Of a DNA stretch of 64,000 nt, positions 1 through 62,051 are shown piece by piece; positions within the stretch are counted from its first letter, which is position 1; the number at the start of each line of letters is the position of its first letter. Under the pieces are notes generated by a model. That model saw nothing but the letters and a program-made list of their open reading frames with translations. It was not told the DNA's origin and did not search any database. A program made the position numbers and the translations under genes. Source of the stretch: Escherichia phage DCP2. The stretch lies in the sequence record OR780565.1; one strand, 5' to 3'.

Positions 1-1411
1 ACAGTTTAAAGTTCATCCAATTCATGAATATATCGCAGGAACAGCTCCTAAGCCAAGTGATGAATATTCTTGTTCTCCGAATGGATGGATGTATGATAAG
101 CATCAAGAAGGTATCATTCCAAAGGAAATCGCTAAAGTATTTTTCCAACGTAAAGATTGGAAAAAGAAAATGTTCGCTGAAGAAATGAATGCCGAAGCTA
201 TTAAAAAGATTATTATGAAAGGTGCAGGGTCTTGTTCAACTAAACCAGAAGTTGAACGATATGTTAAGTTCAATGATGATTTCTTAAACGAATTATCGAA
301 TTACACTGAATCTGTTCTTAATAGTCTGATCGAAGAATGTGAAAAAGCAGCTACACTTGCTAACACAAATCAGCTGAACCGTAAAATTCTTATTAACAGT
401 CTTTATGGTGCTCTTGGTAATATTCATTTCCGTTACTATGATTTGCGAAATGCTACTGCTATCACAATTTTCGGTCAAGTTGGTATTCAGTGGATTGCTC
501 GTAAAATTAATGAATATCTGAATAAAGTATGTGGAACTGATGGTGAAGATTTCATCGCAGCAGGTGATACTGATTCGGTATATGTTTGTGTAGATAAAGT
601 AATTGAAAAAGTAGGTCTTGACCGCTTTAAAGAACAAAATGATTTAGTTGAATTCATGAATCAGTTCGGTAAGAAAAAGATGGAACCTATGATTGATGTT
701 GCATATCGTGAGTTATGTGATTATATGAATAACCGCGAGCATCTGATGCATATGGACCGTGAAGCTATTTCTTGTCCTCCGCTTGGTTCAAAGGGTGTTG
801 GTGGATTTTGGAAAGCGAAAAAACGTTATGCTCTGAACGTTTATGATATGGAAGATAAGCGATTTGCTGAACCGCATCTAAAAATCATGGGTATGGAAAC
901 TCAGCAGAGCTCAACACCAAAAGCAGTACAAGAAGCTCTCGAAGAAAGTATTCGTCGTATTCTTCAGGAAGGCGAAGAGTCTGTTCAAGAATACTACAAG
1001 AACTTTGAAAAAGAATATCGTCAGCTTGACTATAAAGTTATTGCTGAAGTAAAAACCGCGAACGATATAGCTAAATATGATGATAAAGGTTGGCCAGGAT
1101 TTAAATGCCCGTTCCACATTCGTGGTGTGCTAACTTATCGTCGAGCTGTGAATGGTTTAGGTGTAGCTCCAATTTTGGATGGAAATAAGGTAATGGTTCT
1201 TCCATTACGTGAGGGAAATCCATTTGGTGATAAGTGCATTGCTTGGCCATCGGGTACGGAACTTCCAAAAGAAATTCGTTCTGATGTACTGTCTTGGATT
1301 GACTACTCAACTTTGTTCCAAAAATCGTTTGTTAAACCGCTTGCGGGTATGTGTGAATCGGCAGGTATGGACTATGAGGAAAAAGCTTCGTTAGACTTCC
1401 TGTTTGGCTGA
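1..1411 (+). CDS. 43: DNA polymerase gp43, C-terminal part (5' end lies outside window)
   Basis: Frame open from window edge to TGA 1409-1411; translation matches T4-type family-B polymerase C-terminus (YGALGNIHFRYYD, DTDSVYV, KKRYALNVYD). Confidence 0.93.
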   Translation, partial: QFKVHPIHEYIAGTAPKPSDEYSCSPNGWMYDKHQEGIIPKEIAKVFFQRKDWKKKMFAEEMNAEAIKKIIMKGAGSCSTKPEVERYVKFNDDFLNELSNYTESVLNSLIEECEKAATLANTNQLNRKILINSLYGALGNIHFRYYDLRNATAITIFGQVGIQWIARKINEYLNKVCGTDGEDFIAAGDTDSVYVCVDKVIEKVGLDRFKEQNDLVEFMNQFGKKKMEPMIDVAYRELCDYMNNREHLMHMDREAISCPPLGSKGVGGFWKAKKRYALNVYDMEDKRFAEPHLKIMGMETQQSSTPKAVQEALEESIRRILQEGEESVQEYYKNFEKEYRQLDYKVIAEVKTANDIAKYDDKGWPGFKCPFHIRGVLTYRRAVNGLGVAPILDGNKVMVLPLREGNPFGDKCIAWPSGTELPKEIRSDVLSWIDYSTLFQKSFVKPLAGMCESAGMDYEEKASLDFLFG

Positions 1412-1423
1412 TAGAATAAATCT

Positions 1424-1446
1424 AGGGACCTCCGGGTCCCTTTTTC
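1424..1446 (+). terminator. intrinsic terminator after gene 43
   Basis: AGGGACC-TCCG-GGTCCCT hairpin followed by TTTTT. Confidence 0.7.
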
Positions 1447-1528
1447 ATACAAGTAATATAAATCTATACTTAGGAAAAATAGATGATTCTAGGTCCTGTA
1501 AATTCATTAAAAATTTTTTCACAAAACT

Positions 1529-1560
1529 GTTTACATCCCCGTTCTTCCATGGTACTATAC
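1529..1560 (+). promoter_or_regulatory. T4-type early promoter
   Basis: GTTTAC at 1529-1534, GGTACTATAC -10 region about 17 bp downstream, A/T-rich upstream tract. Confidence 0.65.
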
Positions 1561-1592
1561 AACTATCAACTGATACGGATTTGGAGAATGAA

Positions 1593-1973
1593 ATGAAAAT
1601 CGCTATTTTGGTTATTGCATTGGGTCTTACTGGTTGTGTAGCTCAAGGACCGGTAGTAAATCAATCTGATGTAGGAAAAATTGTAAACTGTTCAAGCAAA
1701 TTTTATAATCCTAATGTTAAGTGTTATAAAGAAGCTCCAAAACAGACAGTAGAACAAATGCAGGCGAATTTTGACGAAGCTATTCGTCCAGATGAATCTG
1801 CTCAAGCATATCGTAATTCAGATGTGATTACACGTGAAGAAAAAATTGAAAGTTACTGTGCCGAACTTTGGGCTAATTGGGCTAATAATTATCAATGGCG
1901 TACTGGTAAAAATGCTCCGATGGAGTATGTAGTAAATTCTTATAATTCATGCGTAAAAAATTTGACTAAGTGA
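1593..1973 (+). CDS. putative lipoprotein (126 aa)
   Basis: ATG after GGAGAA RBS and downstream of promoter; N-terminal signal peptide with lipobox LTGC; the 1404 start in the ORF track would span terminator and promoter. Confidence 0.55.
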   Translation: MKIAILVIALGLTGCVAQGPVVNQSDVGKIVNCSSKFYNPNVKCYKEAPKQTVEQMQANFDEAIRPDESAQAYRNSDVITREEKIESYCAELWANWANNYQWRTGKNAPMEYVVNSYNSCVKNLTK

Positions 1974-1980
1974 GGAAAAC

Positions 1981-2232
1981 ATGGAAACTTTAGTAGCAGG
2001 TTCAATTTTTATGGTTTTAGTTTCAGGTGTGTTGGCTATTATTATATACATGCTCCCATGGTTCATCGCCTTGATGCGTGGGTCAAAATCGACAGTAGGA
2101 ATCTTTTTTACATCTTTACTGTTTAACTGGTCAATCATTGGTTGGTTTATTACATTTATTTGGTCAATTGCGGGTGAAACCAAAAAGTCTGCACAGCCAA
2201 ATCAAGTAATTATCATCAGAGAGAAGGAATGA
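1981..2232 (+). CDS. imm: Imm superinfection-immunity membrane protein (83 aa)
   Basis: 83 aa, two hydrophobic helices, located between 43 and 42 as in T4. Confidence 0.75.
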   Translation: METLVAGSIFMVLVSGVLAIIIYMLPWFIALMRGSKSTVGIFFTSLLFNWSIIGWFITFIWSIAGETKKSAQPNQVIIIREKE

Positions 2233-2378
2233 AAAGCAAAATTATAGCAGTGTTGCTTTTAATCTTGATGATTATAATAAGTATATACTATAGTGTAACG
2301 GTTCCTCTTATGATTCCAACTATTATTTTAGGTTGGGGTTTATTACTGTTACAAGTTAAATATGAATGTATCAATTGA
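2229..2378 (+). CDS. small hydrophobic membrane peptide (49 aa)
   Basis: ATG overlaps imm stop (ATGA-type overlap); 49 codons, strongly hydrophobic; below ORF-track length cut-off. Confidence 0.45.
   Translation: MKSKIIAVLLLILMIIISIYYSVTVPLMIPTIILGWGLLLLQVKYECIN
2252..2278 (+). promoter_or_regulatory. candidate MotA-dependent middle promoter upstream of gene 42
   Basis: TTGCTTTT MotA-box-like element about 12 bp upstream of TATAAT at 2273-2278; imperfect box. Confidence 0.3.
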
Positions 2379-2385
2379 GGTTTAA

Positions 2386-3126
2386 ATGATTAGTGACTCT
2401 ATGACAGTTGAAGAAATCCGTCTTCATTTGGGGCTTGCATTAAAAGAAAAAGATTTCGTAGTTGATAAAACCGGGGTTAAAACTATTGAAATTATTGGCG
2501 CATCATTTGTAGCAGATGAACCGTTTATTTTTGGCGCTCTTAATGATGAATACATTCAACGTGAACTTGAATGGTATAAGTCTCAAAGTCTGTTTGTTAA
2601 AGATATTCCAGGCGAAACGCCAAAGATTTGGCAACAGGTAGCATCTTCTAAAGGTGAAATTAACTCGAATTATGGTTGGGCTATCTGGTCAGAAGATAAC
2701 TATGCCCAGTATGATATGTGTTTAGCTGAACTTGGTCAAAATCCTGATTCTCGCCGCGGTATCATGATTTATACTCGTCCATCCATGCAGTTTGACTACA
2801 ACAAAGATGGTATGTCAGATTTCATGTGTACGAATACAGTACAGTACCTGATTCGTGATAAGAAAGTCAATGCAGTAGTAAGCATGCGTTCAAATGACGT
2901 GGTCTTTGGATTCCGTAATGATTATGCATGGCAAAAATACGTACTAGATAAATTAGTATCTGATTTGAATGCAGGTGATTCAACTCGTCAGTATAAAGCA
3001 GGTTCCATTATATGGAATGTCGGGAGCCTTCATGTGTATTCCCGTCATTTTTATTTGGTTGACCATTGGTGGAAAACTGGCGAAACTCATATTGCGAAAA
3101 AAGATTATAACGGTGAGTGGAAATGA
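2386..3126 (+). CDS. 42: dCMP hydroxymethylase gp42
   Basis: 246 aa; N-terminus MISDSMTVEEIRLHLG and thymidylate-synthase-like core match T4 gp42. Confidence 0.93.
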   Translation: MISDSMTVEEIRLHLGLALKEKDFVVDKTGVKTIEIIGASFVADEPFIFGALNDEYIQRELEWYKSQSLFVKDIPGETPKIWQQVASSKGEINSNYGWAIWSEDNYAQYDMCLAELGQNPDSRRGIMIYTRPSMQFDYNKDGMSDFMCTNTVQYLIRDKKVNAVVSMRSNDVVFGFRNDYAWQKYVLDKLVSDLNAGDSTRQYKAGSIIWNVGSLHVYSRHFYLVDHWWKTGETHIAKKDYNGEWK

Positions 3127-3965
3127 TTCAATTCGTAATTCCAAGTTATCAACGCGTAGGGGCAGTTTCTGCCCTTGATATGTTTCCGACTGATTATGAA
3201 CCTCATATTGTAGTACGTGAACACGAAGAAAAAGCTTATTATGACGCTTACGGGTCTAGAGCTAAAATTGTAGTTATTCCCGATGATGTAAATGGAATTG
3301 CTGGAACTCGTAAAGCAATTACTGATATGTATGCAGGTCAGCGAATTTGGATGATTGATGATGATACTACTATTCGTATGAGTTCAATGCGAAAGAAAGA
3401 TGATCGTCGCTGCGTAGATAAAATTAATCAGTTAACTCGTGAACAGTTCTATGAATTGATTCAATACGTTGAAGATGCCATGGATTGCGGGTATTATCAT
3501 GGTCATGCTCGTTTACCTATTTTTAAAATTACTTCATCTTGGGGTAATTATCGTGAAAATTCATATGGATTCACGAATACATGGTATGACCTTGGAAAAC
3601 TTACAACAGAACAAATTGGGTATGGAAAAATTGATTTATGCGAAGATATGTATGCATTTCTCAATTTAATTAATCAAGGTTATCCGCATTTGGCCTTGTT
3701 CAAATATCTGGTTGTATCCGGAAAAGCACAAGCTCCTGGCGGATGCAGCTCAATTCGTAGTAATTCTAAACATAATAGAGCTCTTGAGCAAATCAATAAA
3801 GAGTTTCCAGAGCAAGCTCGTTGGAAAACTTCTAATATTGAAAAACGAAAATCATTAGGTGAAGAAGACGAGCCATTAAAGGTTCTTCGCATGTGTGTTT
3901 CACGCAAAGAAAAGTCAGAAGCATTTCATAAGTTTAATGCTATTCATCCAATAGCAGTTGATTAA
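3117..3965 (+). CDS. putative DNA glycosyltransferase occupying the beta-gt locus (GT-A-like, DxD motif)
   Basis: 282 aa ORF between 42 and uvsX; IWMIDDDTTIR DxD-type motif; unlike T4 beta-gt (351 aa); likely the T2/T6-type beta-glucosyl-HMC-alpha-glucosyltransferase. Confidence 0.55.
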   Translation: MEMIQFVIPSYQRVGAVSALDMFPTDYEPHIVVREHEEKAYYDAYGSRAKIVVIPDDVNGIAGTRKAITDMYAGQRIWMIDDDTTIRMSSMRKKDDRRCVDKINQLTREQFYELIQYVEDAMDCGYYHGHARLPIFKITSSWGNYRENSYGFTNTWYDLGKLTTEQIGYGKIDLCEDMYAFLNLINQGYPHLALFKYLVVSGKAQAPGGCSSIRSNSKHNRALEQINKEFPEQARWKTSNIEKRKSLGEEDEPLKVLRMCVSRKEKSEAFHKFNAIHPIAVD

Positions 3966-3989
3966 TGCCTAAATTTATTGTGTTATAAT
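3964..3989 (+). promoter_or_regulatory. candidate middle promoter upstream of uvsX
   Basis: AATGCCTAA (one mismatch to MotA box) 11 bp upstream of TATAAT 3984-3989. Confidence 0.25.
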
Positions 3990-4042
3990 TACCCTATCTT
4001 TAACCAGTGAGGAAAATATAATGATGCCTATGGAAAAAATGA

Positions 4043-5224
4043 ATGTCTATTGCAGATTTAAAATCCCGTTTGATTAAAGCTTCCACTTCTAAAATGACTG
4101 CTGAACTGACTACATCTAAATTCTTTAATGAAAAGGATGTAATTCGTACAAAAATTCCAATGCTCAATATCGCTATTTCTGGTGCGATTGATGGTGGAAT
4201 GCAGTCTGGTTTAACTATTTTCGCAGGTCCTTCTAAACACTTTAAATCAAATATGTCTTTGACTATGGTTGCGGCGTATTTGAACAAATATCCTGATGCG
4301 GTTTGTTTATTCTATGATAGCGAATTTGGTATTACTCCAGCTTATTTGCGATCAATGGGAGTTGACCCGGAACGAGTAATTCATACACCAATCCAGTCAG
4401 TTGAACAACTGAAAATTGATATGGTGAATCAGCTTGAAGCTATTGAGCGCGGTGAAAAGGTTATTGTATTCATCGACTCAATCGGTAATATGGCCTCTAA
4501 GAAAGAAACGGAAGATGCCTTGAATGAAAAATCTGTGGCAGATATGACTCGTGCTAAATCACTGAAGTCATTATTCCGTATTGTTACTCCTTATTTTAGT
4601 ATTAAAAACATTCCATGTGTTGCGGTTAACCATACAATTGAAACAATTGAAATGTTTAGTAAAACCGTGATGACAGGTGGTACAGGCGTAATGTATTCGG
4701 CTGATACTGTATTCATTATCGGTAAGCGTCAGATTAAAGATGGTTCTGATCTTCAGGGGTATCAATTTGTTCTAAATGTAGAAAAATCTCGTACCGTTAA
4801 AGAAAAAAGTAAATTCTTTATTGATGTTAAATTTGACGGTGGTATCGATCCTTATTCTGGATTGTTAGATATGGCTCTTGAATTAGGATTTGTAGTAAAA
4901 CCTAAAAATGGCTGGTATGCTCGTGAATTTCTTGATGAAGAAACCGGCGAGATGATTCGCGAAGAAAAATCTTGGCGTGCAAAAGATACCAATTGCACTA
5001 CATTCTGGGGTCCTTTATTTAAGCATCAACCATTCCGAGATGCTATTAAACGCGCTTATCAGTTAGGTGCTATTGATAGTAATGAAATTGTTGAAGCTGA
5101 AGTTGATGAATTGATTAACTCAAAGGTTGAAAAATTTAAATCTCCAGAAAGTAAAAGTAAATCAGCAGCTGATTTAGAAACTGACCTAGATCAGTTAAGT
5201 GATATGGAAGAATTTAATGAATAA
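4043..5224 (+). CDS. uvsX: UvsX RecA-like recombinase
   Basis: 393 aa; matches T4 UvsX throughout (Walker A region GPSKHFKS). Confidence 0.93.
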   Translation: MSIADLKSRLIKASTSKMTAELTTSKFFNEKDVIRTKIPMLNIAISGAIDGGMQSGLTIFAGPSKHFKSNMSLTMVAAYLNKYPDAVCLFYDSEFGITPAYLRSMGVDPERVIHTPIQSVEQLKIDMVNQLEAIERGEKVIVFIDSIGNMASKKETEDALNEKSVADMTRAKSLKSLFRIVTPYFSIKNIPCVAVNHTIETIEMFSKTVMTGGTGVMYSADTVFIIGKRQIKDGSDLQGYQFVLNVEKSRTVKEKSKFFIDVKFDGGIDPYSGLLDMALELGFVVKPKNGWYAREFLDEETGEMIREEKSWRAKDTNCTTFWGPLFKHQPFRDAIKRAYQLGAIDSNEIVEAEVDELINSKVEKFKSPESKSKSAADLETDLDQLSDMEEFNE

Positions 5225-5561
5225 AGATGATTTAGATTTAGATCTAGAAATTATCGACGAATCCCCCTCTTCGGAGGGGGAAGAAGAAAGAAAAGAACGT
5301 CTTTTTAATGAATCCCTTAAGATAATTAAATCTGCCATGGAAAATGTTATCCAGGAGATTGTCATTAAACTAGAAGATGGTTCTACACACATTGTGTATG
5401 TGACAAAATTAGATTGGGTTGATGGAAAAGTCGTAATGGACTTTGCTGTTCTTGACCAAGAAAGAAAAGCTGAGTTAGCTCCTCATGTAGAAAAATGTAT
5501 TACAATGCAACTACAAGATGCATTTAATAAAAGGTCAAAGAAAAAATTTAAATTCTTTTAA
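5217..5561 (+). CDS. 40: gp40 head-vertex assembly chaperone
   Basis: 114 aa from ATG overlapping uvsX stop; acidic N-terminal region; position between uvsX and 41. Confidence 0.75.
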   Translation: MNKDDLDLDLEIIDESPSSEGEEERKERLFNESLKIIKSAMENVIQEIVIKLEDGSTHIVYVTKLDWVDGKVVMDFAVLDQERKAELAPHVEKCITMQLQDAFNKRSKKKFKFF

Positions 5562-5570
5562 GGAGTAAGT

Positions 5571-6998
5571 GTGGTAGAAATTATTCTTTCTCATCTCATA
5601 TTTGATCAAGCTTATTTTTCAAAAGTTTGGCCATATATGGATTCAGAATATTTTGAAAGTGGTCCAGCTAAAAATACATTCAAATTAATTAAATCTCATG
5701 TTAATGAGTACCATAGCGTTCCATCTATTAATGCGTTAAATGTTGCATTAGAAAATAGTTCATTTACTGAAACAGAATATTCTGGTGTAAAAACACTTAT
5801 TTCAAAACTAGCTGATTCTCCAGAAGACCACAGCTGGTTAGTAAAAGAAACAGAAAAATATGTTCAGCAAAGGGCGATGTTTAACGCCACATCTAAAATA
5901 ATTGAAATTCAAACCAATGCTGAGCTTCCTCCAGAAAAACGAAATAAGAAAATGCCGGATGTAGGTGCTATTCCTGACATTATGCGCCAAGCATTATCAA
6001 TTTCATTTGATAGCTACGTTGGCCATGATTGGATGGATGACTATGAAGCACGTTGGCTATCTTATATGAATAAAGCTCGTAAGGTTCCATTTAAACTCAA
6101 AATTCTAAATAAAATTACTAAAGGCGGAGCTGAAACTGGAACACTGAATGTTTTAATGGCTGGTGTTAACGTCGGTAAGTCATTAGGTCTGTGTTCATTG
6201 GCAGCAGATTATTTGCAGCTCGGACATAATGTTCTTTACATTTCCATGGAAATGGCAGAAGAAGTCTGTGCTAAGCGTATTGACGCTAACATGCTCGATG
6301 TTTCTCTTGATGACATTGATGACGGGCATATTTCTTACGCTGAGTATAAAGGAAAAATGGAAAAATGGCGTGAGAAATCTACTCTTGGCCGTTTAATCGT
6401 TAAACAGTATCCTACTGGTGGAGCAGACGCTAATACATTTCGATCGCTTTTAAACGAATTAAAGCTCAAGAAGAATTTTGTTCCAACAATCATTATTGTC
6501 GACTATCTAGGTATTTGTAAATCTTGTCGCATCAGAGTTTACTCAGAAAATAGTTACACAACTGTTAAAGCTATCGCAGAGGAATTGCGTGCTCTAGCTG
6601 TTGAAACCGAAACTGTTCTTTGGACTGCAGCACAGGTTGGTAAGCAAGCTTGGGATTCTTCTGATGTTAACATGAGCGATATTGCAGAATCTGCCGGTCT
6701 TCCAGCAACAGCCGATTTTATGCTTGCGGTCATTGAAACCGAGGAGTTAGCAGCGGCTGAACAGCAACTCATTAAGCAAATCAAATCACGATACGGTGAT
6801 AAGAATAAATGGAATAAGTTTTTGATGGGTGTTCAAAAAGGAAATCAGAAATGGGTAGAAATTGAACAAGATTCTACTCCAACTGAAGTGAACGAAGTAG
6901 CAGGTTCACAACAGATACAAGCTGAACAGAATCGCTATCAAAGAAATGAATCTACTCGAGCCCAGTTAGATGCTTTAGCAAACGAATTAAAATTTTAG
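5571..6998 (+). CDS. 41: gp41 replicative DNA helicase
   Basis: 475 aa, GTG start after AGGAG RBS; DnaB-like Walker A (GVNVGKS). Confidence 0.93.
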   Translation: MVEIILSHLIFDQAYFSKVWPYMDSEYFESGPAKNTFKLIKSHVNEYHSVPSINALNVALENSSFTETEYSGVKTLISKLADSPEDHSWLVKETEKYVQQRAMFNATSKIIEIQTNAELPPEKRNKKMPDVGAIPDIMRQALSISFDSYVGHDWMDDYEARWLSYMNKARKVPFKLKILNKITKGGAETGTLNVLMAGVNVGKSLGLCSLAADYLQLGHNVLYISMEMAEEVCAKRIDANMLDVSLDDIDDGHISYAEYKGKMEKWREKSTLGRLIVKQYPTGGADANTFRSLLNELKLKKNFVPTIIIVDYLGICKSCRIRVYSENSYTTVKAIAEELRALAVETETVLWTAAQVGKQAWDSSDVNMSDIAESAGLPATADFMLAVIETEELAAAEQQLIKQIKSRYGDKNKWNKFLMGVQKGNQKWVEIEQDSTPTEVNEVAGSQQIQAEQNRYQRNESTRAQLDALANELKF

Positions 6999-7030
6999 TT
7001 TACAAGCTGACAAGACTATGGTATAGTAGT
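6998..7030 (+). promoter_or_regulatory. T4-type early promoter
   Basis: GTTTAC 6998-7003, -10 TATAGT 7022-7027; -10 flanked by 8-bp inverted repeat CAAGACTA / TAGTCTTG. Confidence 0.6.
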
Positions 7031-7056
7031 CTTGTTGGTTAAATGAGGAGATTGTT

Positions 7057-7239
7057 ATGGAATTGGTAAAGGTAGTTTTTATGGGGTGGTTTAAGAATGA
7101 AAGCATGTTTACTAAAGAAATCACAATGATGAAAGACGACGTTCAATGGGCTACTACTCAATATGCTGAAGTTAATAAAGCATTAGTTAAAGCTTTCATT
7201 GATGACAAGAAAGTATGCGAAGTGGATTGCCGAGGATAA
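7057..7239 (+). CDS. dmd: Dmd (antitoxin of RnlA/LsoA-type host toxins), 60 aa
   Basis: 60 aa ORF immediately downstream of gene 41 with GAGGAG RBS; sequence and position match T4 gene 61.5 as remembered. Confidence 0.65.
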   Translation: MELVKVVFMGWFKNESMFTKEITMMKDDVQWATTQYAEVNKALVKAFIDDKKVCEVDCRG

Positions 7240-7240
7240 T

Positions 7241-7483
7241 ATGCACATTGTTTTATTTAAACCTACTCCGTATAATGTCAGGAAAAATACTCAATTCAAA
7301 GCACTTATTGCAGATACGTGGGAATTGGTGTTAGATATTCCAGCAGAAGAAAGTCCTCCATTTGGTCGAGTGGAATTTATTAAGTTTGCTGTGCGCCCTA
7401 CGAAGCGGCAGATTCGCCAATGCAAAAGATACTTTCGTAAAATCGTCAAGTTAGAGAAACAGTTATTGATGCTAGTAAAATAG
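7241..7483 (+). CDS. hypothetical protein (80 aa)
   Basis: ATG 7241 directly after dmd stop with GAGGA RBS; basic C-terminus. Confidence 0.5.
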   Translation: MHIVLFKPTPYNVRKNTQFKALIADTWELVLDIPAEESPPFGRVEFIKFAVRPTKRQIRQCKRYFRKIVKLEKQLLMLVK

Positions 7484-7485
7484 TA

Positions 7486-7516
7486 GTTTACAAGCTGATA
7501 GAGTTGTGTTATAGTA
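7486..7516 (+). promoter_or_regulatory. T4-type early promoter
   Basis: GTTTAC 7486-7491, -10 TATAGT 7510-7515; flanked by 10-bp inverted repeat AGCTGATAGA / TCTATCAGCT. Confidence 0.6.
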
Positions 7517-7546
7517 ATTCTATCAGCTAATCGCGGAGAAAAGAAA

Positions 7547-7801
7547 ATGATGCTAGTTAATAGAGAATATCAGTTTAAATCAGAAGAAGATTTGGAAAAA
7601 TTCGCAAGTGGTTGTGAACTGAATAGACGCACAGCTAAAGTCATAGGATTAAAACCCTTTACAGTTCTAGATTGTGAAGTTTCTAAATTCCGCAGAGGGT
7701 GTTCTATTAGCGGTCATGCTCTGGTTGATGGGAACACATTTTTCTTTGTTTTTAGCGTCAGAGAACTTTTATTGATTAACGAACTTGAGGAAATAAAATA
7801 G
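7547..7801 (+). CDS. hypothetical protein (84 aa)
   Basis: ORF with RBS GGAGAA, downstream of early promoter. Confidence 0.5.
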   Translation: MMLVNREYQFKSEEDLEKFASGCELNRRTAKVIGLKPFTVLDCEVSKFRRGCSISGHALVDGNTFFFVFSVRELLLINELEEIK

Positions 7802-7832
7802 TTTACTTTTGTTGGAAATTGAGATACTATAT
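7801..7832 (+). promoter_or_regulatory. T4-type early promoter upstream of sp
   Basis: GTTTAC 7801-7806 and GATACTATATAA -10 region. Confidence 0.55.
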
Positions 7833-7858
7833 AAACATAAACTACTGAGGAGATTATC

Positions 7859-8152
7859 ATGAAAAAATTTGTTTTTGCTGCAATTTTTGCTTTAGCTTCT
7901 TGTGCTGCTCAGCCTGCTATGGCAGGTTATGATAAAGATTTGTGCGAATGGTCTATGACTGCAGATCAGACTGAGGTTGAAACTCAGATTGAAGCAGATA
8001 TTATGAACATCGTTGAGCGTGATCGCCCTGAAATGAAAGCTGAAGTACAAAAACAGCTTAAGTCTGGTGGTGTAATGCAGTATAATTACGTTCTGTATTG
8101 TGATAAAAACTTCAATAATAAAAATATCATCGCTGAAGTGGTAGGTGAATAA
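7859..8152 (+). CDS. sp: Spackle periplasmic protein (lysis inhibition/superinfection exclusion), 97 aa
   Basis: 97 aa with cleavable signal peptide (AQPAMA); position between 41 and 61. Confidence 0.7.
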   Translation: MKKFVFAAIFALASCAAQPAMAGYDKDLCEWSMTADQTEVETQIEADIMNIVERDRPEMKAEVQKQLKSGGVMQYNYVLYCDKNFNNKNIIAEVVGE

Positions 8153-8164
8153 TTAGAGGCTAAT

Positions 8165-8329
8165 ATGAAAACGTTTAAAGAATTTATTAAAGAAGATATG
8201 GTAGCTGGAGATTCAGGTGGTAATCCTGAAAATATCTCTACTGGAACAACGTCAGGCGCTGTAGTAAATAAAGGTCCTGAACAGATTCCTAAAAAGAAAA
8301 AAGAGGAATCTAAAGAAAAAGAAGAGTAA
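8165..8329 (+). CDS. small charged protein (54 aa)
   Basis: 54-codon ORF, Lys/Glu-rich C-terminus; below track cut-off. Confidence 0.45.
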   Translation: MKTFKEFIKEDMVAGDSGGNPENISTGTTSGAVVNKGPEQIPKKKKEESKEKEE

Positions 8330-8332
8330 AAA

Positions 8333-9361
8333 ATGTCATCAATACCTTGGATTGATAATGAGTTTGCATATCGTGCGCTAGCTCATTTACCTAAATTCAC
8401 ACAAGTAAATAATAGTTCAACTTTTAAATTACGGTTTAGATGCCCTGTTTGTGGAGATTCAAAAACCGACCAAAATAAAGCTCGTGGATGGTATTATGGC
8501 GATAATAATGAAGGAAATATTCATTGCTATAACTGTAACTATCATGCACCAATCGGAATATATTTAAAGGAGTTTGAACCTGATTTATATCGTGAGTATA
8601 TCTTTGAAATAAGAAAAGAAAAAGGTAAAAGTCGTCCAGTAGAAAAACCTAAAGAACTTCCTAAACAACCCGAGAAGAAAATAATTAAATCTCTTCCGTC
8701 ATGCATTAGATTAGATAAACTGACGGAAGACCATCCAATTATAAAATACGTAAAAGCTCGTTGTATTCCAAAGGATAAATGGAAATATCTTTGGTTTACA
8801 ACCGAATGGCCTAAATTAGTTAATAGTATAGCACCAGGAACATATAAAAAGGAAATACCTGAGCCTCGTCTTGTTATTCCAATTTATAATGCTAATGGAA
8901 AAGCTGAGTCTTTTCAAGGACGTGCATTAAAGAAAGATGCTCCTCAAAAATATATCACCATCAAAGCTTATCCTGAGGCAACAAAAATCTATGGTGTTGA
9001 ACGAGTTAAAGATGGTGATGTATATGTTCTAGAAGGACCTATAGATTCACTTTTTATTGAAAATGGTATAGCTATTACGGGTGGTCAATTAGACCTAGAA
9101 ATTGTTCCATTTAAAGATAGACGTGTATGGGTTTTAGATAATGAACCTCGTCACCCTGATACTATTAAACGAATGACTAAATTAGTTGATGCAGGAGAAA
9201 GGGTTATGTTTTGGGATAAATCTCCCTGGAAATCAAAAGATGTTAATGATATGATTAGAAAGGAAGGTGCAACCCCTGAACAAATTATGGAATATATGAA
9301 AAATAATATTGCCCAAGGGTTGATGGCTAAAATGCGGCTATCTAAATATGCTAAGATTTAA
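8333..9361 (+). CDS. 61: gp61 DNA primase
   Basis: 342 aa; N-terminal zinc ribbon CPVCGDS...CYNC; TOPRIM-like core. Confidence 0.92.
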   Translation: MSSIPWIDNEFAYRALAHLPKFTQVNNSSTFKLRFRCPVCGDSKTDQNKARGWYYGDNNEGNIHCYNCNYHAPIGIYLKEFEPDLYREYIFEIRKEKGKSRPVEKPKELPKQPEKKIIKSLPSCIRLDKLTEDHPIIKYVKARCIPKDKWKYLWFTTEWPKLVNSIAPGTYKKEIPEPRLVIPIYNANGKAESFQGRALKKDAPQKYITIKAYPEATKIYGVERVKDGDVYVLEGPIDSLFIENGIAITGGQLDLEIVPFKDRRVWVLDNEPRHPDTIKRMTKLVDAGERVMFWDKSPWKSKDVNDMIRKEGATPEQIMEYMKNNIAQGLMAKMRLSKYAKI

Positions 9362-9558
9362 ATTAATCCAACTAAAGCAAATGCTAAATCTACGAATGTA
9401 TCGAGAGTAATTACTGGAATACTAACGCCATGAGCAATAGCAATTGGCGATAAAATAAAGTTCCATAGTAAAATTCCTATCATAGCAGAAATAGTAAAAG
9501 CTATACGTTTTTTATTACCTTTTATGGCATTAACAAGTGCCATTAATTTTTGTACCAT
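9358..9558 (-). CDS. small two-helix membrane peptide (66 aa), convergent with gene 61
   Basis: Strong SD on minus strand (AAAGGAGGA, 6 nt spacer, ATG at 9558); two hydrophobic helices; stop overlaps gene 61 stop. Confidence 0.55.
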   Translation of the reverse strand: MVQKLMALVNAIKGNKKRIAFTISAMIGILLWNFILSPIAIAHGVSIPVITLDTFVDLAFALVGLI

Positions 9559-9607
9559 GCGTCGTCCTCCTTTAAATTAAATATTTATCGCAAATTTTAC
9601 AAAATTT

Positions 9608-9640
9608 GTTTACTTTCTCAGCTTGCTGTGGTATTATAAA
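9608..9640 (+). promoter_or_regulatory. T4-type early promoter
   Basis: GTTTAC 9608-9613, -10 TATTATAAA about 17 bp downstream. Confidence 0.6.
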
Positions 9641-9662
9641 ATAAACTGCTGAGGATAATATA

Positions 9663-11002
<1,340 letters not shown>

Positions 11003-11062
11003 TTGCTTATATATTCAAATGATATAATTATTTAACTTATTAATGAATTGAAAGGAAAAATA

Positions 11063-11581
11063 ATGGCATACTTTAATGAATGTTCACAACTGATTGAAGG
11101 CGCTGATAAAGCTCAAAACGAATACTGGGATATTCTCGGTGATGAAAAAGACCCGCTGCAAGTTATGCTTGATATGCAGAAATCTCTGCAGGTTCGTTTA
11201 GCTAAAGATAAACCTGAATATAACCGTCATCCTGATGATTTGGCTACTGCGGGTGAAGTTGTTGATTGGCTGCGTAATCAGAAAGATTATATTGATGATG
11301 AATTCCGCGAACTATTGACTTCTCTTGGTGGTATGAGCAATGGTGAAAAAGATGCATCTGCTGTATGGAAGCCTTGGAAAGCTCAACATGGTGAACGACG
11401 TGAAACTCTGATTACTGATTTGTCTCCACAAGACCAGTTGGAAATTAAATTCGAAATGATTGATATTCTTCATTTCGTTCTGAACATGTTCCAAGGTCTC
11501 GGTCTTACGGCTGAAGAAATCTTTAAACTTTATTATCTGAAAAATGCTGAAAACTTCGCTCGTCAAGACCGAGGTTATTAA
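11063..11581 (+). CDS. 56: gp56 dCTPase/dUTPase (dCTP pyrophosphatase)
   Basis: 172 aa from ATG with AAAGGA RBS; MazG-like; matches T4 gp56. Confidence 0.9.
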   Translation: MAYFNECSQLIEGADKAQNEYWDILGDEKDPLQVMLDMQKSLQVRLAKDKPEYNRHPDDLATAGEVVDWLRNQKDYIDDEFRELLTSLGGMSNGEKDASAVWKPWKAQHGERRETLITDLSPQDQLEIKFEMIDILHFVLNMFQGLGLTAEEIFKLYYLKNAENFARQDRGY

Positions 11582-11781
11582 TGGCTCGTTTAAATAAACG
11601 TCAACTTAAGAAAGCCCACAAGAAACGTATTGACCAGCTATTTAAAAATTATGACAAGGAGCTCACATACGAGCTCCTATCTAATCAGCTCCACAAAGCT
11701 TACACAATTAAAACTGGACATATACAATTAGGTAAGGTGCATGAAGAAGCCTTAAAATTAATTATAGAGCATTCAAAATGA
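11581..11781 (+). CDS. hypothetical basic protein (66 aa)
   Basis: ATG overlaps gp56 stop; Lys/Arg-rich. Confidence 0.5.
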   Translation: MARLNKRQLKKAHKKRIDQLFKNYDKELTYELLSNQLHKAYTIKTGHIQLGKVHEEALKLIIEHSK

Positions 11782-11965
11782 AATTTGATTTTTATGCATG
11801 GCAAAAAGCCGGGAGACCGGCTAGTTGAGCATTTGGTTCTGATGGATATAATATTAGAGCTCATTGGAAGTTTAATGCTCCAGCCGATTATTCTCCGGTA
11901 ATTATTAACGGTGATGTTGTTATATTAACTAAAATTGGGTATTTTAACGTTCCGCAAGAATTTAT

Positions 11966-11973
11966 TATAAATA
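11966..11973 (+). promoter_or_regulatory. T4 late promoter (TATAAATA) for soc
   Basis: Exact TATAAATA octamer about 30 bp upstream of soc ATG; soc is a late gene. Confidence 0.6.
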
Positions 11974-12002
11974 GTCATGTAATTTAAATAAAGGAGAATT
12001 AC

Positions 12003-12248
12003 ATGGCTAGTACTCGCGGTTATGTTAATATTAAAACATTTGAGCAAAAATTAGATGGAAATAAGAAAATTGAAGGAAAGGAAATTTCTGTAGCTTTCCC
12101 TCTTTATTCTGACGTTCACAAAATTTCTGGCGCTCATTATCAGATATTCCCTTCAGAAAAAGCAGCATATTCTACAGTATATGAAGAAAATCAACGTACT
12201 GAATGGATTACTGCAAACGAAGATTTGTGGAAAGTAACTGGTGAATAA
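12003..12248 (+). CDS. soc: Soc small outer capsid protein
   Basis: 81 aa; near-identical to T4 Soc (MASTRGYVNIKTFEQKLDGNKKIEGKEISVAFPLYSDVHKISGAHYQ). Confidence 0.9.
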   Translation: MASTRGYVNIKTFEQKLDGNKKIEGKEISVAFPLYSDVHKISGAHYQIFPSEKAAYSTVYEENQRTEWITANEDLWKVTGE

Positions 12249-12253
12249 ATTCA

Positions 12254-12278
12254 AGGACTCCTTCGGGAGTCCTTTTTT
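12254..12278 (+). terminator. intrinsic terminator after soc
   Basis: GGACTCC-TTCG-GGAGTCC hairpin (UUCG tetraloop) followed by T6. Confidence 0.75.
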
Positions 12279-12288
12279 CATTTTACCG

Positions 12289-12318
12289 GTTTACTTTCCA
12301 AAATGAGTATGGTATAAT
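12289..12318 (+). promoter_or_regulatory. T4-type early promoter
   Basis: GTTTAC 12289-12294, TATAAT 12313-12318. Confidence 0.6.
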
Positions 12319-12344
12319 AAAATTATCTTATAGAGGAGAGCACT

Positions 12345-12557
12345 ATGTTAAATCGCTGGATTAAACCAAATGAAGACCTCCAGAAGGTTCTTGATAAAGC
12401 TATCTCTGATAAATGGGGTATGAAAAGCTGGGATTGTGATATCGTCACGCATTCATTCATGATGCATGCAGATGGTTCAGTCGAGTTCAATGCTGAAATG
12501 CGATACACTGATTGGGGTGGATTTCAAAGAGTCGAATTTCAAAGAGGCTTTTTGTAA
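12345..12557 (+). CDS. hypothetical protein (70 aa)
   Basis: AGAGGAGAG RBS, downstream of promoter. Confidence 0.55.
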   Translation: MLNRWIKPNEDLQKVLDKAISDKWGMKSWDCDIVTHSFMMHADGSVEFNAEMRYTDWGGFQRVEFQRGFL

Positions 12558-12895
12558 TGTTTATCTTTAATTGGTTTAAAAGTTTCTTTACGGATTTTTT
12601 CTCTACAACTCCCGGAGAAGGTGTAGTTCCTATTTCAAATGACTACCTTCCTTTAACTGTAGTTGAATATGTTTATATGGGAGATGGAACAGTAGAAGCA
12701 GTTACTATGACTTATGAAGAAGCCCAGGAATATTATAAAAATCCTTGGCGTTGGTCAACACCTACATCATCTAATACGCAGAATACACAGTCTAGTTCTG
12801 ATTCATATGATACTAATGTTCCTGTTCATGTGTGGACGGGCGATTCATGTGGAAGTTCTTGTGATTCTAGTTGTTCATCTACATCTTGTGATTGA
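12557..12895 (+). CDS. hypothetical protein with Ser/Cys-rich C-terminal tail (112 aa)
   Basis: ATG overlaps upstream stop (TAATG); C-terminus [18 protein letters not shown]. Confidence 0.5.
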
Positions 12896-12903
12896 GGAAA
12901 ATT

Positions 12904-13389
12904 ATGGAAGCGATTTTGTTTGAAATGTATATTAGCAGTAATAGTATGTCGTTTGCTAAAGACGTTCCAATTACCGTAGCAGTAATGATTGATAAGGGTT
13001 ATTGTGACCCAATGTATCTCGTAGAAAATTTCGTTTCAATGCCAGTTCCAGAAGATGCTGAAATAAAACTTAAAAAGATTGGTATCATTGAAACTGTACC
13101 AAATATTCCATTTAGAGCAATTGAAGCATTTACTAAATCCGAATACATTAATGTTAGCGCAGAACAATATAATGATAAACCTTTATCTTTCTATTCGTAC
13201 GATTCATTATATAGTTGGAAAATAGATAAAGGAAATAAATTTATAATTGCGAGTGAAGACGCTTTATCATATTTTATTTCTTCTGTATGGAATAGTTTAC
13301 ATCCAAATTTGCTAAAAATTCATGAATTTGACGATGCTTCTACTGTCGTTTTAGGTAAAACAAATGAAAGTTCTGAAGAAAATGTTTGA
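12904..13389 (+). CDS. hypothetical protein (161 aa)
   Basis: ATG after GAGGAAA RBS. Confidence 0.55.
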
Positions 13390-13567
13390 ATGGTTCAATA
13401 GACCAAACTCAATGTACATTGATGATGGTTGGGTTGAACAAGCAAATAAAGAAATGCAGAACGAATCGGAAGAATGGATGAAATCAATGATTAGTGCTGA
13501 GAAAGAAAAGAAATTAGAACGCTCAGCGCTTAAATTGATGAGAGATATCTATGGGGATAAATCATGA
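13364..13567 (+). CDS. hypothetical protein (67 aa)
   Basis: Overlapping ORF, weak RBS. Confidence 0.4.
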
Positions 13568-13728
13568 ACAGAGATATGACGCTAGAAGAGGCCAAGGCTA
13601 AAGCAAATGAAGCACTGGATTTGCTTCTTAAAATTGGCAGTAAAATGATGGAAGAAAATGAGAAATATATCCAGGAAAACAAAATTCCTGACGGCCCATT
13701 AGTAGGCAAAAGGAAATCACATGATTGA
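13564..13728 (+). CDS. hypothetical protein (54 aa)
   Basis: ATGA overlap with upstream ORF; below track cut-off. Confidence 0.4.
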
Positions 13729-14191
13729 AGTAGCAAAACATTATTCAATAGAATTTATGTCTAAAGAAGGTAAATCAGTAAATGCACTTGATAAAAAATG
13801 CTCATTAATTATTCCTTTAGCAGAAAATCCGGATCTTTTAATTAAAGATATAAAAGAAAGAAAATATCCAGAAAATGTTATTCTAATTATAAAGCATACT
13901 GAAGATATTTTACAGAATACTGATTCACCGTTTTCTTCTTCTGAAGCTTTAACTATTAAAGGCTATAAAAGAGCTCATGAATATGGTCTTTTTGACCTGT
14001 TTGAAGATGATAAAGTTAAATTAGCGAGTCAACCTTTTAAAAGTAAAACATTCATTATTGAAGATATTAAAGATATAAATGCATTTGTTAAGATGGTCTG
14101 GGCTCATTTTGATGTTGGACTACGCTGGAGAATGTCTGAAGAAGAAAGAAAGATTATTGAAGCTAATCGTCAATTTGGTTTTTATCGCTAG
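13721..14191 (+). CDS. hypothetical protein (156 aa)
   Basis: ORF in the mrh-region position between soc and modB. Confidence 0.5.
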
Positions 14192-14199
14192 GAATTAGT

Positions 14200-14382
14200 A
14201 TGGATTTATTTGAGATGTTAGAAGATAATCATTCTACGAATATCCAGAATGATTCTAGTGATTATAAGAAAGAATACCGTATAGTATTACAGAATTATGG
14301 AATTGAAGCCCCAGATGCTCTTCTAGAAGAACTAGCTTCATACCATCTTGACCCTCCGCCCTGGGCTCCCTGGGCAAAATAA
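14200..14382 (+). CDS. hypothetical protein (60 aa)
   Basis: short ORF, acidic. Confidence 0.45.
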   Translation: MDLFEMLEDNHSTNIQNDSSDYKKEYRIVLQNYGIEAPDALLEELASYHLDPPPWAPWAK

Positions 14383-14393
14383 TTCAAAAAGTT

Positions 14394-14425
14394 GTTTACT
14401 TTCCTTCCTAACAATGATATGATAG
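14394..14425 (+). promoter_or_regulatory. T4-type early promoter upstream of modB
   Basis: GTTTAC 14394-14399, -10 GATATGATAG. Confidence 0.55.
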
Positions 14426-14449
14426 CTTCTGAAGTATATGGAGGCTATC

Positions 14450-15073
14450 ATGATTATTAATCTTGCAGATGTTGAACAGTTATCTATAAAAGCTGAAAGT
14501 GTCGATTTTCAATATGATATGTATAAAAAAGTCTGTGAAAAATTTACTGACTTTGAACAATCAGTTCTTTGGCAATGTATGGAAGCCAAAAAGAATGAAG
14601 CTCTTCATCGGCAGTTGAATAAAATCGTTAAAAAGCATTTAACTAAATCACCTTATCAGCTATATCGTGGTATATCAAAATCGACAAAAGAGCTCATTAA
14701 AGATTTACAAGTTGGAGAAGTGTTTTCAACGAATAGAGTAGATTCATTTACTACTAGTTTGCACACAGCGTGCGGTTTTTCTTATGTTGAGTATTTCACT
14801 GAAATAATATTTCGCTTAAAAACTGATAAAGCTTTTAATTACTCTGACCATATCAGCGATATTATACTTTCTTCTCCTAATACTGAGTTTAAGTATACAT
14901 ATGAAGATACTGATGGATTAGATTCAGAACGTACTGATAACTTAATGATGATTGTGCGTGAACAAGAATGGATGATTCCAATTGGAAAGTATAGAATAAC
15001 TTCTATTTCAAAAGAAAAATTACACGATTCATTTGGAACATTTAAAGTGTATGATATTGAGGTAGTTGAATGA
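14450..15073 (+). CDS. modB: ModB-like ADP-ribosyltransferase
   Basis: 207 aa from ATG with GGAGG RBS; paralogous to following ORF; position and length as T4 modB. Confidence 0.6.
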   Translation: MIINLADVEQLSIKAESVDFQYDMYKKVCEKFTDFEQSVLWQCMEAKKNEALHRQLNKIVKKHLTKSPYQLYRGISKSTKELIKDLQVGEVFSTNRVDSFTTSLHTACGFSYVEYFTEIIFRLKTDKAFNYSDHISDIILSSPNTEFKYTYEDTDGLDSERTDNLMMIVREQEWMIPIGKYRITSISKEKLHDSFGTFKVYDIEVVE

Positions 15074-15672
15074 AATATTCAGCAATGCAATTAAAAGATT
15101 TTAAAATCAAATCAATGGATGCATCGGTGCGTGCTTCTATTCGTGAAGAATTACTTTCTGAAGGATTTAATTTATCTGAAATTGAACTTTTAATTCATTG
15201 TATTACTAATAAGCCAGACGACCACTCTTGGTTAAATGAAATAATCAAATCTCGTTTGGTTCCAAACGATAAACCTCTTTGGAGAGGTGTTCCAGTTGAG
15301 ACTAAGCAGGTGTTAAATCAAGGAATTGATATTATTACATTTGATAAAGTAGTATCAGCTTCATATGATAAAAATATAGCTCTACATTTTGCTTCTGGAT
15401 TAGAATACAATACACAAGTTATTTTTGAATTCAAAGCTCCTATGGTATTTAATTTTCAGGAGTATGCTATAAAAGCTCTACGTTGTAAAGAATATAGTCC
15501 GAGTTTTAAATTTCCAGATAGCCATCGCTATCGTAATATGGAATTAGTTTCAGATGAACAAGAAGTAATGATACCAGCTGGAAGTGTATTTAGAATTGCG
15601 GATAGATATGAGTATAAAAAGTATTCAACATACACTATCTATACTCTTGATTTTGAAGGATTTAATCTATAA
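15070..15672 (+). CDS. modA: ModA-like ADP-ribosyltransferase
   Basis: 200 aa; paralog of preceding ORF; ATGA overlap. Confidence 0.6.
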   Translation: MKYSAMQLKDFKIKSMDASVRASIREELLSEGFNLSEIELLIHCITNKPDDHSWLNEIIKSRLVPNDKPLWRGVPVETKQVLNQGIDIITFDKVVSASYDKNIALHFASGLEYNTQVIFEFKAPMVFNFQEYAIKALRCKEYSPSFKFPDSHRYRNMELVSDEQEVMIPAGSVFRIADRYEYKKYSTYTIYTLDFEGFNL

Positions 15673-15728
15673 TGGAAGGACTTAGATTCATTATACCATG
15701 AAAGTTTTAAAGCATTTTTCATAAAGTT

Positions 15729-15760
15729 GTTTACAAGCTGAAGTAAAAATGATATAGTAT
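15729..15760 (+). promoter_or_regulatory. T4-type early promoter
   Basis: GTTTACAAGCTGA then TATAGT 15754-15759. Confidence 0.6.
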
Positions 15761-15787
15761 AAGTAGTTAACCGTCCGTGAGAAAAAT

Positions 15788-16534: not shown

Positions 16535-16535
16535 T

Positions 16536-16847
16536 ATGTTTTATGTATATGCGATAGTGTATAGAGATAAAGATGGATTTGCGGTGCCTGTTCCTCTTGA
16601 TGAACATCGTCCTGCTATATTTTTTGAAAGGGAGATTGCTGATAAAGTATTTACAACTCTTAAAGAGCAGTATCAACTAGCTTTAGGTATGGGAATTCCG
16701 AGATTAGTCGAGACTCCACGCAAGTTTTGGTTTAATAAAATAGAAGTTAAACATGTTAAGCCTGATGTAGACACACAAAGATTATATCGGCGAATTTTAG
16801 ATACTGGGCGTATTGTTAGTATACCAATTGCAGGGAATTTACGATGA
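16536..16847 (+). CDS. hypothetical protein (103 aa)
   Basis: ORF with GAGG RBS directly upstream of dda. Confidence 0.5.
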   Translation: MFYVYAIVYRDKDGFAVPVPLDEHRPAIFFEREIADKVFTTLKEQYQLALGMGIPRLVETPRKFWFNKIEVKHVKPDVDTQRLYRRILDTGRIVSIPIAGNLR

Positions 16848-18163: not shown

Positions 18164-18184
18164 TTAAATTTGAGGAAGCTATTC

Positions 18185-19348: not shown

Positions 19349-19354
19349 AAAGTT

Positions 19355-19385
19355 GTTTACTTCCTCAGTTAGTTGTGGTATTATA
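19355..19385 (+). promoter_or_regulatory. T4-type early promoter
   Basis: GTTTAC 19355-19360, TATTAT 19379-19384. Confidence 0.6.
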
Positions 19386-19411
19386 ACACCATAGCTACTG
19401 AGGATAATAAA

Positions 19412-19912: not shown

Positions 19913-19914
19913 TT

Positions 19915-20462: not shown

Positions 20463-20492
20463 GTTTACAAACTCTTGGGACCAGAGTATAAT
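20463..20492 (+). promoter_or_regulatory. T4-type early promoter
   Basis: GTTTAC 20463-20468, TATAAT 20487-20492 flanked by GGACCA / TGGTCC inverted repeat. Confidence 0.6.
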
Positions 20493-20536
20493 GGTCCTGT
20501 GGAGTATAAAATCTTTTTAACAAGTGAGAGATAACT

Positions 20537-21025: not shown

Positions 21026-21055
21026 AGTTTAAAATTTTTTCATAAAACTATATAC

Positions 21056-21098
21056 ATCAGTAGTTGATTATGGTACTATATCAATATCAACTACTGAT
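21056..21098 (+). repeat. 13-bp perfect inverted repeat enclosing a promoter -10-like element
   Basis: ATCAGTAGTTGAT (21056-21068) and ATCAACTACTGAT (21086-21098) separated by 17 nt containing TATGGTACTATATCAAT. Confidence 0.8.
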
Positions 21099-29322: not shown

Positions 29323-29353
29323 GTTTACAAGACTGTTCTTCCGTGGTACTATT
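29323..29353 (+). promoter_or_regulatory. T4-type early promoter
   Basis: GTTTAC 29323-29328, TACTAT 29347-29352, leader CTATCAACTAC. Confidence 0.6.
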
Positions 29354-29380
29354 ACCCTATCAACTACGGAGGAACAGAAA

Positions 29381-50854: not shown

Positions 50855-50886
50855 GTTTACAACGGGCTATGGTAGTGATACTATAG
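50855..50886 (+). promoter_or_regulatory. T4-type early promoter
   Basis: GTTTAC 50855-50860, GATACTATAG -10; GGCTAT / ATAGCC inverted repeat. Confidence 0.55.
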
Positions 50887-50909
50887 CCTTATCAACTAAG
50901 GAGAATAAA

Positions 50910-58685: not shown

Positions 58686-58717
58686 TGTTTACAAGTCCCT
58701 CGTGTTGTGTTATAGTA
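58686..58717 (+). promoter_or_regulatory. T4-type early promoter
   Basis: GTTTACAAGTCC then TATAGT 58711-58716. Confidence 0.6.
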
Positions 58718-58744
58718 GTCTTACTGACATAACATGAGGACTTT

Positions 58745-61992: not shown

Positions 61993-62023
61993 GTTTACTT
62001 TACGGTAGAGTTGTGATATTATA
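61993..62023 (+). promoter_or_regulatory. T4-type early promoter
   Basis: GTTTAC 61993-61998, TATTAT 62017-62022 flanked by GGTAGAG / CTCTACC inverted repeat. Confidence 0.6.
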
Positions 62024-62051
62024 GCTCTACCAAACAAATGAGGAAATTGAA

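Follow-up and report, generated by a model that had tools for sequence, protein, structure and literature searches.

Hairpins Embedded in Early Promoters of a Tequatrovirus Form in Read-Through RNA and Probably Insulate Gene Cassettes

Early promoters of Escherichia phage DCP2 carry real, enriched, and selected sense-strand hairpins that are formed only by read-through RNA. We analyzed one stretch of 64,000 nt from this phage (record OR780565.1; hereafter the window), in which a sequence-only reading had described short inverted repeats on both sides of the −10 element of five promoters. Judged by their sequence features, these hairpins are of an already known kind, the published promoter-early stem-loop (PeSL) cassette of T4-type phages. 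Their most likely role, to which we give a probability of about 0.6, is that the hairpin closes the upstream message in read-through RNA and so insulates each cassette.

Hairpins in T4-Type Early Promoters

The window has ~93–97% nucleotide identity to T4 (genus Tequatrovirus), and ~500 Tequatrovirus genomes match its region 6000–9000 at 95–99% identity. In T4 coordinates its alignment descends from ~28.6 kb to 1 and continues to ~131 kb, its gene order uvsX-40-41-dmd-61.4-...-sp-61 is that of T4, and its early genes lie on the + strand. This alignment and gene order identify the GTTTAC/TATAAT sites as T4-type early promoters. We defined strong early promoters on the + strand as TTTACW, a 16–17 nt spacer, and TAnnnT, followed by a Shine-Dalgarno sequence and ATG (n = 21). 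All five reported sites have a TTTACW-N17-TAnnnT promoter (17-nt spacer) with the Shine-Dalgarno and ATG 25–44 nt 3′ of the −10, and all lie in an AT-rich stretch with the stop codon of the upstream gene 0–3 nt ahead of the −35; at site 1 the stop codon of gene 41 (6996–6998) adjoins the −35. For comparison we used relatives from GenBank phage records. Searches of IMG/VR with the Dmd protein (5 loci) and with the promoter pattern (14 loci) returned almost exclusively identical or unrelated loci.

All five arm pairs (5/5) are present exactly as first described (Table 1). Together with a further site at 21056, which the sequence-only reading had overlooked, they form class A: compact hairpins that hold the −10 in the loop or apex and leave the Shine-Dalgarno free. 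In a second class (B), the spacer directly after the −35 pairs with the Shine-Dalgarno region. Eight of the 21 promoters have no embedded structure of either class.

Table 1. Promoters and hairpin arms in the window
Feature	Positions	Strand	Details
Site 1, promoter ahead of dmd	6999..7040	+	−35 TTTACA 6999-7004; −10 TATAGT 7022-7027; hairpin 7005-7040
Site 1, arms as first reported	7011-7018/7027-7034	+	CAAGACTA/TAGTCTTG
Site 2, promoter	7487..7528	+	−35 7487-7492; −10 TATAGT 7510-7515; hairpin 7493-7528
Site 2, arms	7493-7502/7519-7528	+	AGCTGATAGA/TCTATCAGCT; 10-bp perfect, 14 bp with G.U pairs
Site 3, promoter ahead of motB	20464..20505	+	−35 20464-20469; −10 TATAAT 20487-20492
Site 3, arms as first reported	20478-20483/20492-20497	+	GGACCA/TGGTCC
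Site 3, hairpin (7 bp)	20477-20483/20492-20498	+	GGGACCA/TGGTCCT; loop GAGTATAA
Site 4, promoter ahead of frd.1 homologue	50856..50889	+	−35 50856-50861; −10 TACTAT 50879-50884
Site 4, arms	50865-50870/50883-50888	+	GGCTAT/ATAGCC; 11-bp hairpin 50864-50889; GUGA loop
Site 5, promoter between cd.3 and cd.2	61994..62031	+	−35 61994-61999; −10 TATTAT 62017-62022
Site 5, arms	62004-62010/62025-62031	+	GGTAGAG/CTCTACC; 7-bp perfect, 12 bp with G.U pairs
Additional class A member	21050..21098	+	degenerate −35 (ATATACA); −10 TACTAT 21074-21079
Additional class A member, arms	21056-21068/21086-21098	+	ATCAGTAGTTGAT/ATCAACTACTGAT; 13-bp perfect; −19.7 kcal/mol; from unbiased hairpin scan
Class B, motB.2 homologue	19362..19404	+	spacer TCCTCAGT with ACTGAGGA holding the Shine-Dalgarno; 17-bp helix around the −10
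Class B, ndd.4-region gene	29333..29377	+	spacer GTTCTTCCGT with ACGGAGGAAC holding the Shine-Dalgarno; −22.7 kcal/mol, z −5.8
Class B, alc	58693..58743	+	spacer AGTCCCTC... with ...GAGGACT holding the Shine-Dalgarno; −24.4 kcal/mol, z −6.3

The promoter hairpins are clearly nonrandom. Perfect repeats of at least 6 bp span the −10 in 9/21 promoters against 2.07 expected from shuffles that keep the −10 (P = 0.0005), so that the repeats exceed chance; against random genomic positions with the same geometry, 12.6% of which have a repeat of at least 6 bp, the binomial P for 9/21 is 0.0006. With about 13% of random positions having one, a 6-bp pair is not significant by itself, and one weak 6-bp repeat (45982–45987/46004–46009) was left out since the minimum-energy fold does not support it. 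When G.U pairs are counted, the stems of the five sites reach 11–15 bp and fold at −15.6 to −18.9 kcal/mol (z −3.2 to −4.7), while just 0.47% of random 40-nt windows on the same strand reach −15 kcal/mol. Of the 56 strongest local hairpins that an unbiased scan picked out on the + strand, 8 begin 6–11 nt after the start of a −35, where ~0.1 would be expected.

The most stable of the five is site 1 (15 bp, −18.9 kcal/mol, z −4.7), whose perfect core is actually 9 bp (7010–7018/7027–7035) around a loop at 7019–7026, that is, −15 to −8. Site 2 folds at −18.0 kcal/mol (z −4.65), and at site 3 an outer helix lengthens the hairpin to 20471–20505. The −10 of site 4 belongs to the 3′ arm (−15.6 kcal/mol), and this element is multicopy in other genera. 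Site 5 (−16.3 kcal/mol) has a hairpin identical to that of T4, and its promoter corresponds to the annotated T4 early promoter Pe133295.

Two further observations concern these promoters. Near-identical early promoters (ttttcacaaaactgTTTACA ... ggTACTATacaactatcaact) are scattered over the window (1515–1590, 28803–28880, 29309–29385, 32449–32530, 49844–49935, and 21035–21110), and the spacers of individual copies are adapted for pairing, at 21056 with the downstream block that is conserved and at 29324 with the Shine-Dalgarno. The T4 RefSeq record NC_000866 describes 133300–133313 as "inverted complement of previously reported sequence," a correction to Pe133295; the corrected 14 nt correspond to window 62011–62024, the exact loop between GGTAGAG and CTCTACC. 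The older T4 sequence thus had the loop flipped between inverted repeats, which could be a sequencing artefact at the hairpin or a real repeat-mediated inversion.

Pairing Is Kept Across Genera

Substitutions among relatives indicate that the hairpins are under selection. The site 3-type unit consists of TTTACAAACTCTTG, a 7-nt arm, GAGTATAA, and the second arm. It occurs in Tequatro-, Gapriver-, Dhaka-, Mosig-, and Kanagawavirus, where it precedes nonorthologous genes in different genera (motB, 55.2, ndd, and a gene after frd.3). Its arms read GGGACCA, GGGGCCA, GGGGTCA, TGAGAGCA, or GAGGACA, in every case with a complementary second arm, around an invariant loop and behind an invariant −35. 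Across an alignment of 12 such sequences 98.8% of cells are paired and 3/7 pairs have changed on both sides; none of 500 shuffles reach the observed covariation score, and sliding the partner lowers pairing to 38–50%. The site 5 family behaves similarly: Mosigvirus has two arm changes with pairing kept, and Gelderlandvirus has wholly different arms (GGGTTAT/ATAACCC) in the same geometry. The sequence-only reading had taken differing arms in a conserved geometry as a sign of a structural role and had made conservation of the arms in related phages a test of it; both points are borne out, with arms that vary among promoters, stay complementary, and covary across genera through compensatory changes.

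Closer relatives give the same picture. RB7 has both the 6999 and the 20464 hairpin block without any change, between flanks that are 90% and 77% identical, respectively. Among one-sided stem substitutions, counted over Tequatrovirus and its nearest relatives with Gaprivervirus VR7 included, 10/10 keep pairing (four at 6999, three at 20464, and three at 19356), all of them exchanging Watson-Crick and G.U pairs and none (0/10) creating A.C; the probability of this outcome is ~0.001 if half of transitions break a pair. The promoter is kept and the hairpin gone in PHB12, MY02, and, in part, APCEc01, so the hairpin is dispensable.

A separate feature of the site 3-type module is a GGAG at about +3 to +6 (window 20500–20503), which is present in several genera, reads GGAT in Dhaka- and Mosigvirus, and is distinct from the Shine-Dalgarno of the gene. 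Lying near the transcript 5′ end, it could be a RegB cleavage site.

The Folding Molecule and Its Geometry

The distribution of G.U pairs points to sense RNA as the molecule that folds. In the ten class A and B hairpins, the sense strand has 26 G.U pairs and the antisense strand 3. As sense RNA, 10/10 hairpins are stabler than as antisense RNA, with a gap of at least 5 kcal/mol in 9/10, a difference found in 4.5% of random windows. This bias points to read-through RNA, as had been proposed from the repeats, and argues against both a symmetric DNA cruciform and a protein operator. An operator for a dimeric protein was rejected also because the arms differ among promoters and covary.

The placement of the arms agrees with what had been claimed for the promoter's own transcripts. 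The 5′ arm occupies −29 to −16 in the spacer, and the 3′ arm runs from −7 to about +1 to +7, in the discriminator and start region, with start sites inferred from the usual 6–8 nt after the −10 rather than mapped. Only RNA begun further upstream can contain the 5′ arm, which precedes the start site; transcripts from the promoter itself would be missing all of this arm and the greater part of the 3′ arm.

At sites 1, 2, 3, and 5 (6999, 7487, 20464, and 61994) the arms are centred on the −12/−11 step, and this dyad centre is found also in RB69 upstream of sp (imm→sp), in RB69 upstream of cef, and in STML-198; it differs at site 4 (50856), at 21056, and in VR7 upstream of sp. The simplest explanation of the recurrent axis is packing, since a stem of at least 7 bp can be fitted between the −35 and the start site only with its arms packed tightly around the 8-nt extended −10 core (−15 to −8).

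PeSL Cassettes and Homology Breaks

The five sites have every sequence-level feature by which PeSLs are defined: a sigma-70-like early promoter, a stable stem-loop overlapping it, an intergenic position, and location at indel or replacement junctions. The sequence-only reading had not recognized this identity. PeSLs were first described in RB49/phi1 (Arbiol et al. 2010, PMC2839356) and then extended to PST/T4 and nt-1/KVP40, with TTTACW-N17-TAYWAT as the PST/T4 promoter consensus (Comeau et al. 2014, PMC4122927); the published set includes a subclass that overlaps the −10 (PMC2839356; PMC4122927). The likeness extends to the order of elements (an AT-rich upstream region, an early promoter, a stem-loop in or over the promoter, then the Shine-Dalgarno and start codon), to variable arms, and to cassettes at insertion, deletion, and replacement junctions of close relatives. 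There are differences: RB49 stems are polyG/polyC, whereas those of the window are rich in AU, include G.U pairs, and lack a U-tract, and the legend of Figure 3 in PMC4122927 puts the PST stem-loops "just upstream of" the promoter, whereas the hairpins here overlap it. The PST GenBank record has no annotated PeSL features. In the portions of the PeSL papers available to us we found no report of cross-genus covariation, sense-strand G.U bias, a −12/−11 dyad axis, or a class that pairs with the Shine-Dalgarno. The covariation, strand bias, and Shine-Dalgarno-pairing class are additions to the published PeSLs and not a new category.

Comparison with T4 suggests that the conserved cassettes are places where related phages swapped or lost genes. 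The site 2 promoter heads an 84-aa ORF (7547–7801), and this cassette (7487–7801) has no T4 counterpart: T4 homology breaks off at 7464 and is found again from 7794, just ahead of the next promoter, and in T4 a single promoter joins 61.4 to sp in its place. RB7 has the 7465–7801 cassette too, while T4, T2, RB14, and many others lack it. The ORF is annotated "goF" in one relative, and a Pfam search with it gave no matches. Promoter 50856 is likewise absent from T4, with homology resuming at 50896. Overall, 7 of ~36 ends of T4 homology blocks lie within −30 to +60 of a −35, with breaks at promoters 7487, 7802, 9609, 28818, 32464, 32810, and 50856.

These breaks raise the possibility that the repeats act at the level of DNA, where an extruded cruciform or single-strand hairpin would promote cassette recombination (PeSL shuffling, mini-circles) or tune promoter melting. 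Recombination between PeSLs has been demonstrated, and in RB49 one mini-circle crossover maps within the loop (PMC2839356); T4 homology breaks fall at these promoters, and the dyad axis, shared by sites 1, 2, 3, and 5 with RB69 and STML-198, might reflect an effect on melting or hairpin-driven recombination. However, each tolerated sense-strand G.U would be a G.T on one DNA arm and an A.C on the other, the constant axis follows from tight arms around the fixed 8-nt TGnTATAA core, and promoters 7802 and 32464 are breakpoints without having a hairpin. We consider a DNA-level role rather unlikely.

Hairpins That Pair with the Shine-Dalgarno

The sequence-only reading had likened all of these promoters to the T4 genes e and soc. 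These two, along with 49 and I-TevI, are established cases in which the transcript determines whether the ribosome binding site is occluded (reviewed in PMC3014915); in such genes the helix holds the Shine-Dalgarno or AUG, and a late (gp55) promoter lies within it. As there, the promoter here lies inside the hairpin, local RNA lacks the 5′ arm, and just read-through RNA folds. Unlike e and soc, the five sites have an early promoter and a Shine-Dalgarno outside the helix: the 3′ arm ends 5–25 nt ahead of it, and both Shine-Dalgarno and AUG are unpaired in the minimum-energy folds of all five. The comparison therefore fails for the five listed sites, and the mechanism matches only class B.

Class B comprises promoters 19356, 29324, and 58688. 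Their helices are 17–22 bp, their spacer-to-Shine-Dalgarno duplexes have energies of −21 to −23 kcal/mol, and in all three the cognate region ranks 1 of 21. The 19362..19404 structure folds at −24.4 kcal/mol (z −7.1); at this site RB7 has three substitutions, all of which keep pairing, and the orthologous RB69 site has different but complementary arms. RB69 also has 11- and 13-bp perfect spacer/Shine-Dalgarno versions at 20878–20932 and 33970–34030. Weaker pairing, with the cognate region second in rank, is found at promoters 9609 (9615–9655) and 12290 (12294–12340). In this class, read-through RNA would mask the ribosome binding site, which locally initiated RNA would leave open. The available portions of the PeSL papers and of the T4 review contain no mention that we could find of such pairing, the older T4 literature lying outside this search.

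A translational gate of the e/soc type at the five sites themselves, in which the read-through hairpin blocks ribosomes and the gene is translated only from transcripts of its own promoter, is unlikely. The absence of the 5′ arm from the own transcript and the clear fit of class B speak for it, and the stems of sites 1, 2, 4, and 5 end 5–10 nt ahead of the Shine-Dalgarno, near the edge of the 30S footprint. Against it, besides the unpaired Shine-Dalgarno and AUG, the spacer/Shine-Dalgarno duplexes of the five sites are no better than noncognate ones (ranks 4–21 of 21).

A 14-bp hairpin of another kind lies at 14418–14452, 3′ of the start site of promoter 14395, and encloses the Shine-Dalgarno and ATG of the modB homologue. 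It would also be present in this promoter's own transcript, and RB69 has a similar structure ahead of modB (~27972–28008).

Proposed Closure of the Upstream Message

For PeSLs, the stem-loop was proposed to terminate or attenuate upstream transcription, and a lacZ reporter demonstrated such activity for just one stem-loop, a GC-rich one from RB49 (PMC2839356). The hairpins here resemble intrinsic terminators in being intergenic and at the end of the upstream cistron, but their stems are not GC-rich, no U-tract follows, and their position is over the promoter rather than ahead of it. None of the five tails has more than 3 T in 10 nt, and a terminator scan of 1–20000, which holds sites 1 and 2, listed none of the hairpins. 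Without a U-tract and with AU-rich stems they are not canonical intrinsic terminators, a candidate that we rejected on the missing U-tract. Canonical GC-stem and T-run terminators do precede other promoters (1530, 12290, 32464, and 49859), and there is no separate terminator at the hairpin sites. A literature search found no T4 transcript-end maps (Term-seq, cappable-seq) covering the hairpin sites.

We propose that a strong sigma-70 early promoter carries an RNA hairpin in the positions that promoter recognition leaves free. The promoter's own transcript would begin at about the end of the 3′ arm, which would confine the hairpin to read-through RNA. There it would define where the upstream message stops, whether by attenuation or pausing or by holding back 3′ exonucleases, and each promoter–gene cassette would be expressed from its own promoter, insulated from its neighbors at no cost in extra intergenic DNA. 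In class B the same design would also mask the Shine-Dalgarno.

A hairpin between cistrons could also be a processing site at which RNase III or another double-strand-specific nuclease separates the cistrons of read-through RNA, as might be imagined for intergenic hairpins that exist only in polycistronic RNA, the more so with class B helices of 17–22 bp. The RNase III of Escherichia coli usually needs roughly two helical turns, ~20 bp or more of near-continuous helix. The five stems, at 11–15 bp with 2–4 G.U pairs and small loops, fall short of this, which makes cleavage by RNase III unlikely, and an Rfam scan of the whole window matched no families; processing in general we regard as a distinctly remote prospect. 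That the hairpins have no function, being chance palindromes or a residue of shared ancestry among duplicated promoters, is highly improbable: 6-bp repeats are common at random positions of such geometry and several of the promoters are paralogues, but the enrichment, the cross-genus compensatory changes, and the bias to pairing-preserving substitutions speak against it, and the covariation of the site 3-type module contradicts it.

Implications for T4-Type Phages

A broader generalization, that T-even early promoters systematically double as discriminators of transcript origin, their spacers coding for the 5′ half of a helix that either masks the Shine-Dalgarno or closes the upstream message, is tentative, and we think it possible but doubtful; it may carry what is seen at e and soc beyond a few late genes to many immediate-early ones (alc, motB.2, the ndd.4 region). 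Class B suggests that some immediate-early translation is tied to the gene's own promoter, which would contribute to early-gene shut-off after promoter silencing. For annotation, these hairpins should not be labeled as terminators or operators, and T4-like homology breaks are to be expected at them. If insulation by the promoter hairpins is true, each message has its end signal encoded in those positions of the following promoter that are free to vary, and this would explain how T4-type phages fit in dozens of freely exchangeable early genes, each under its own regulation, while having hardly any intergenic DNA.
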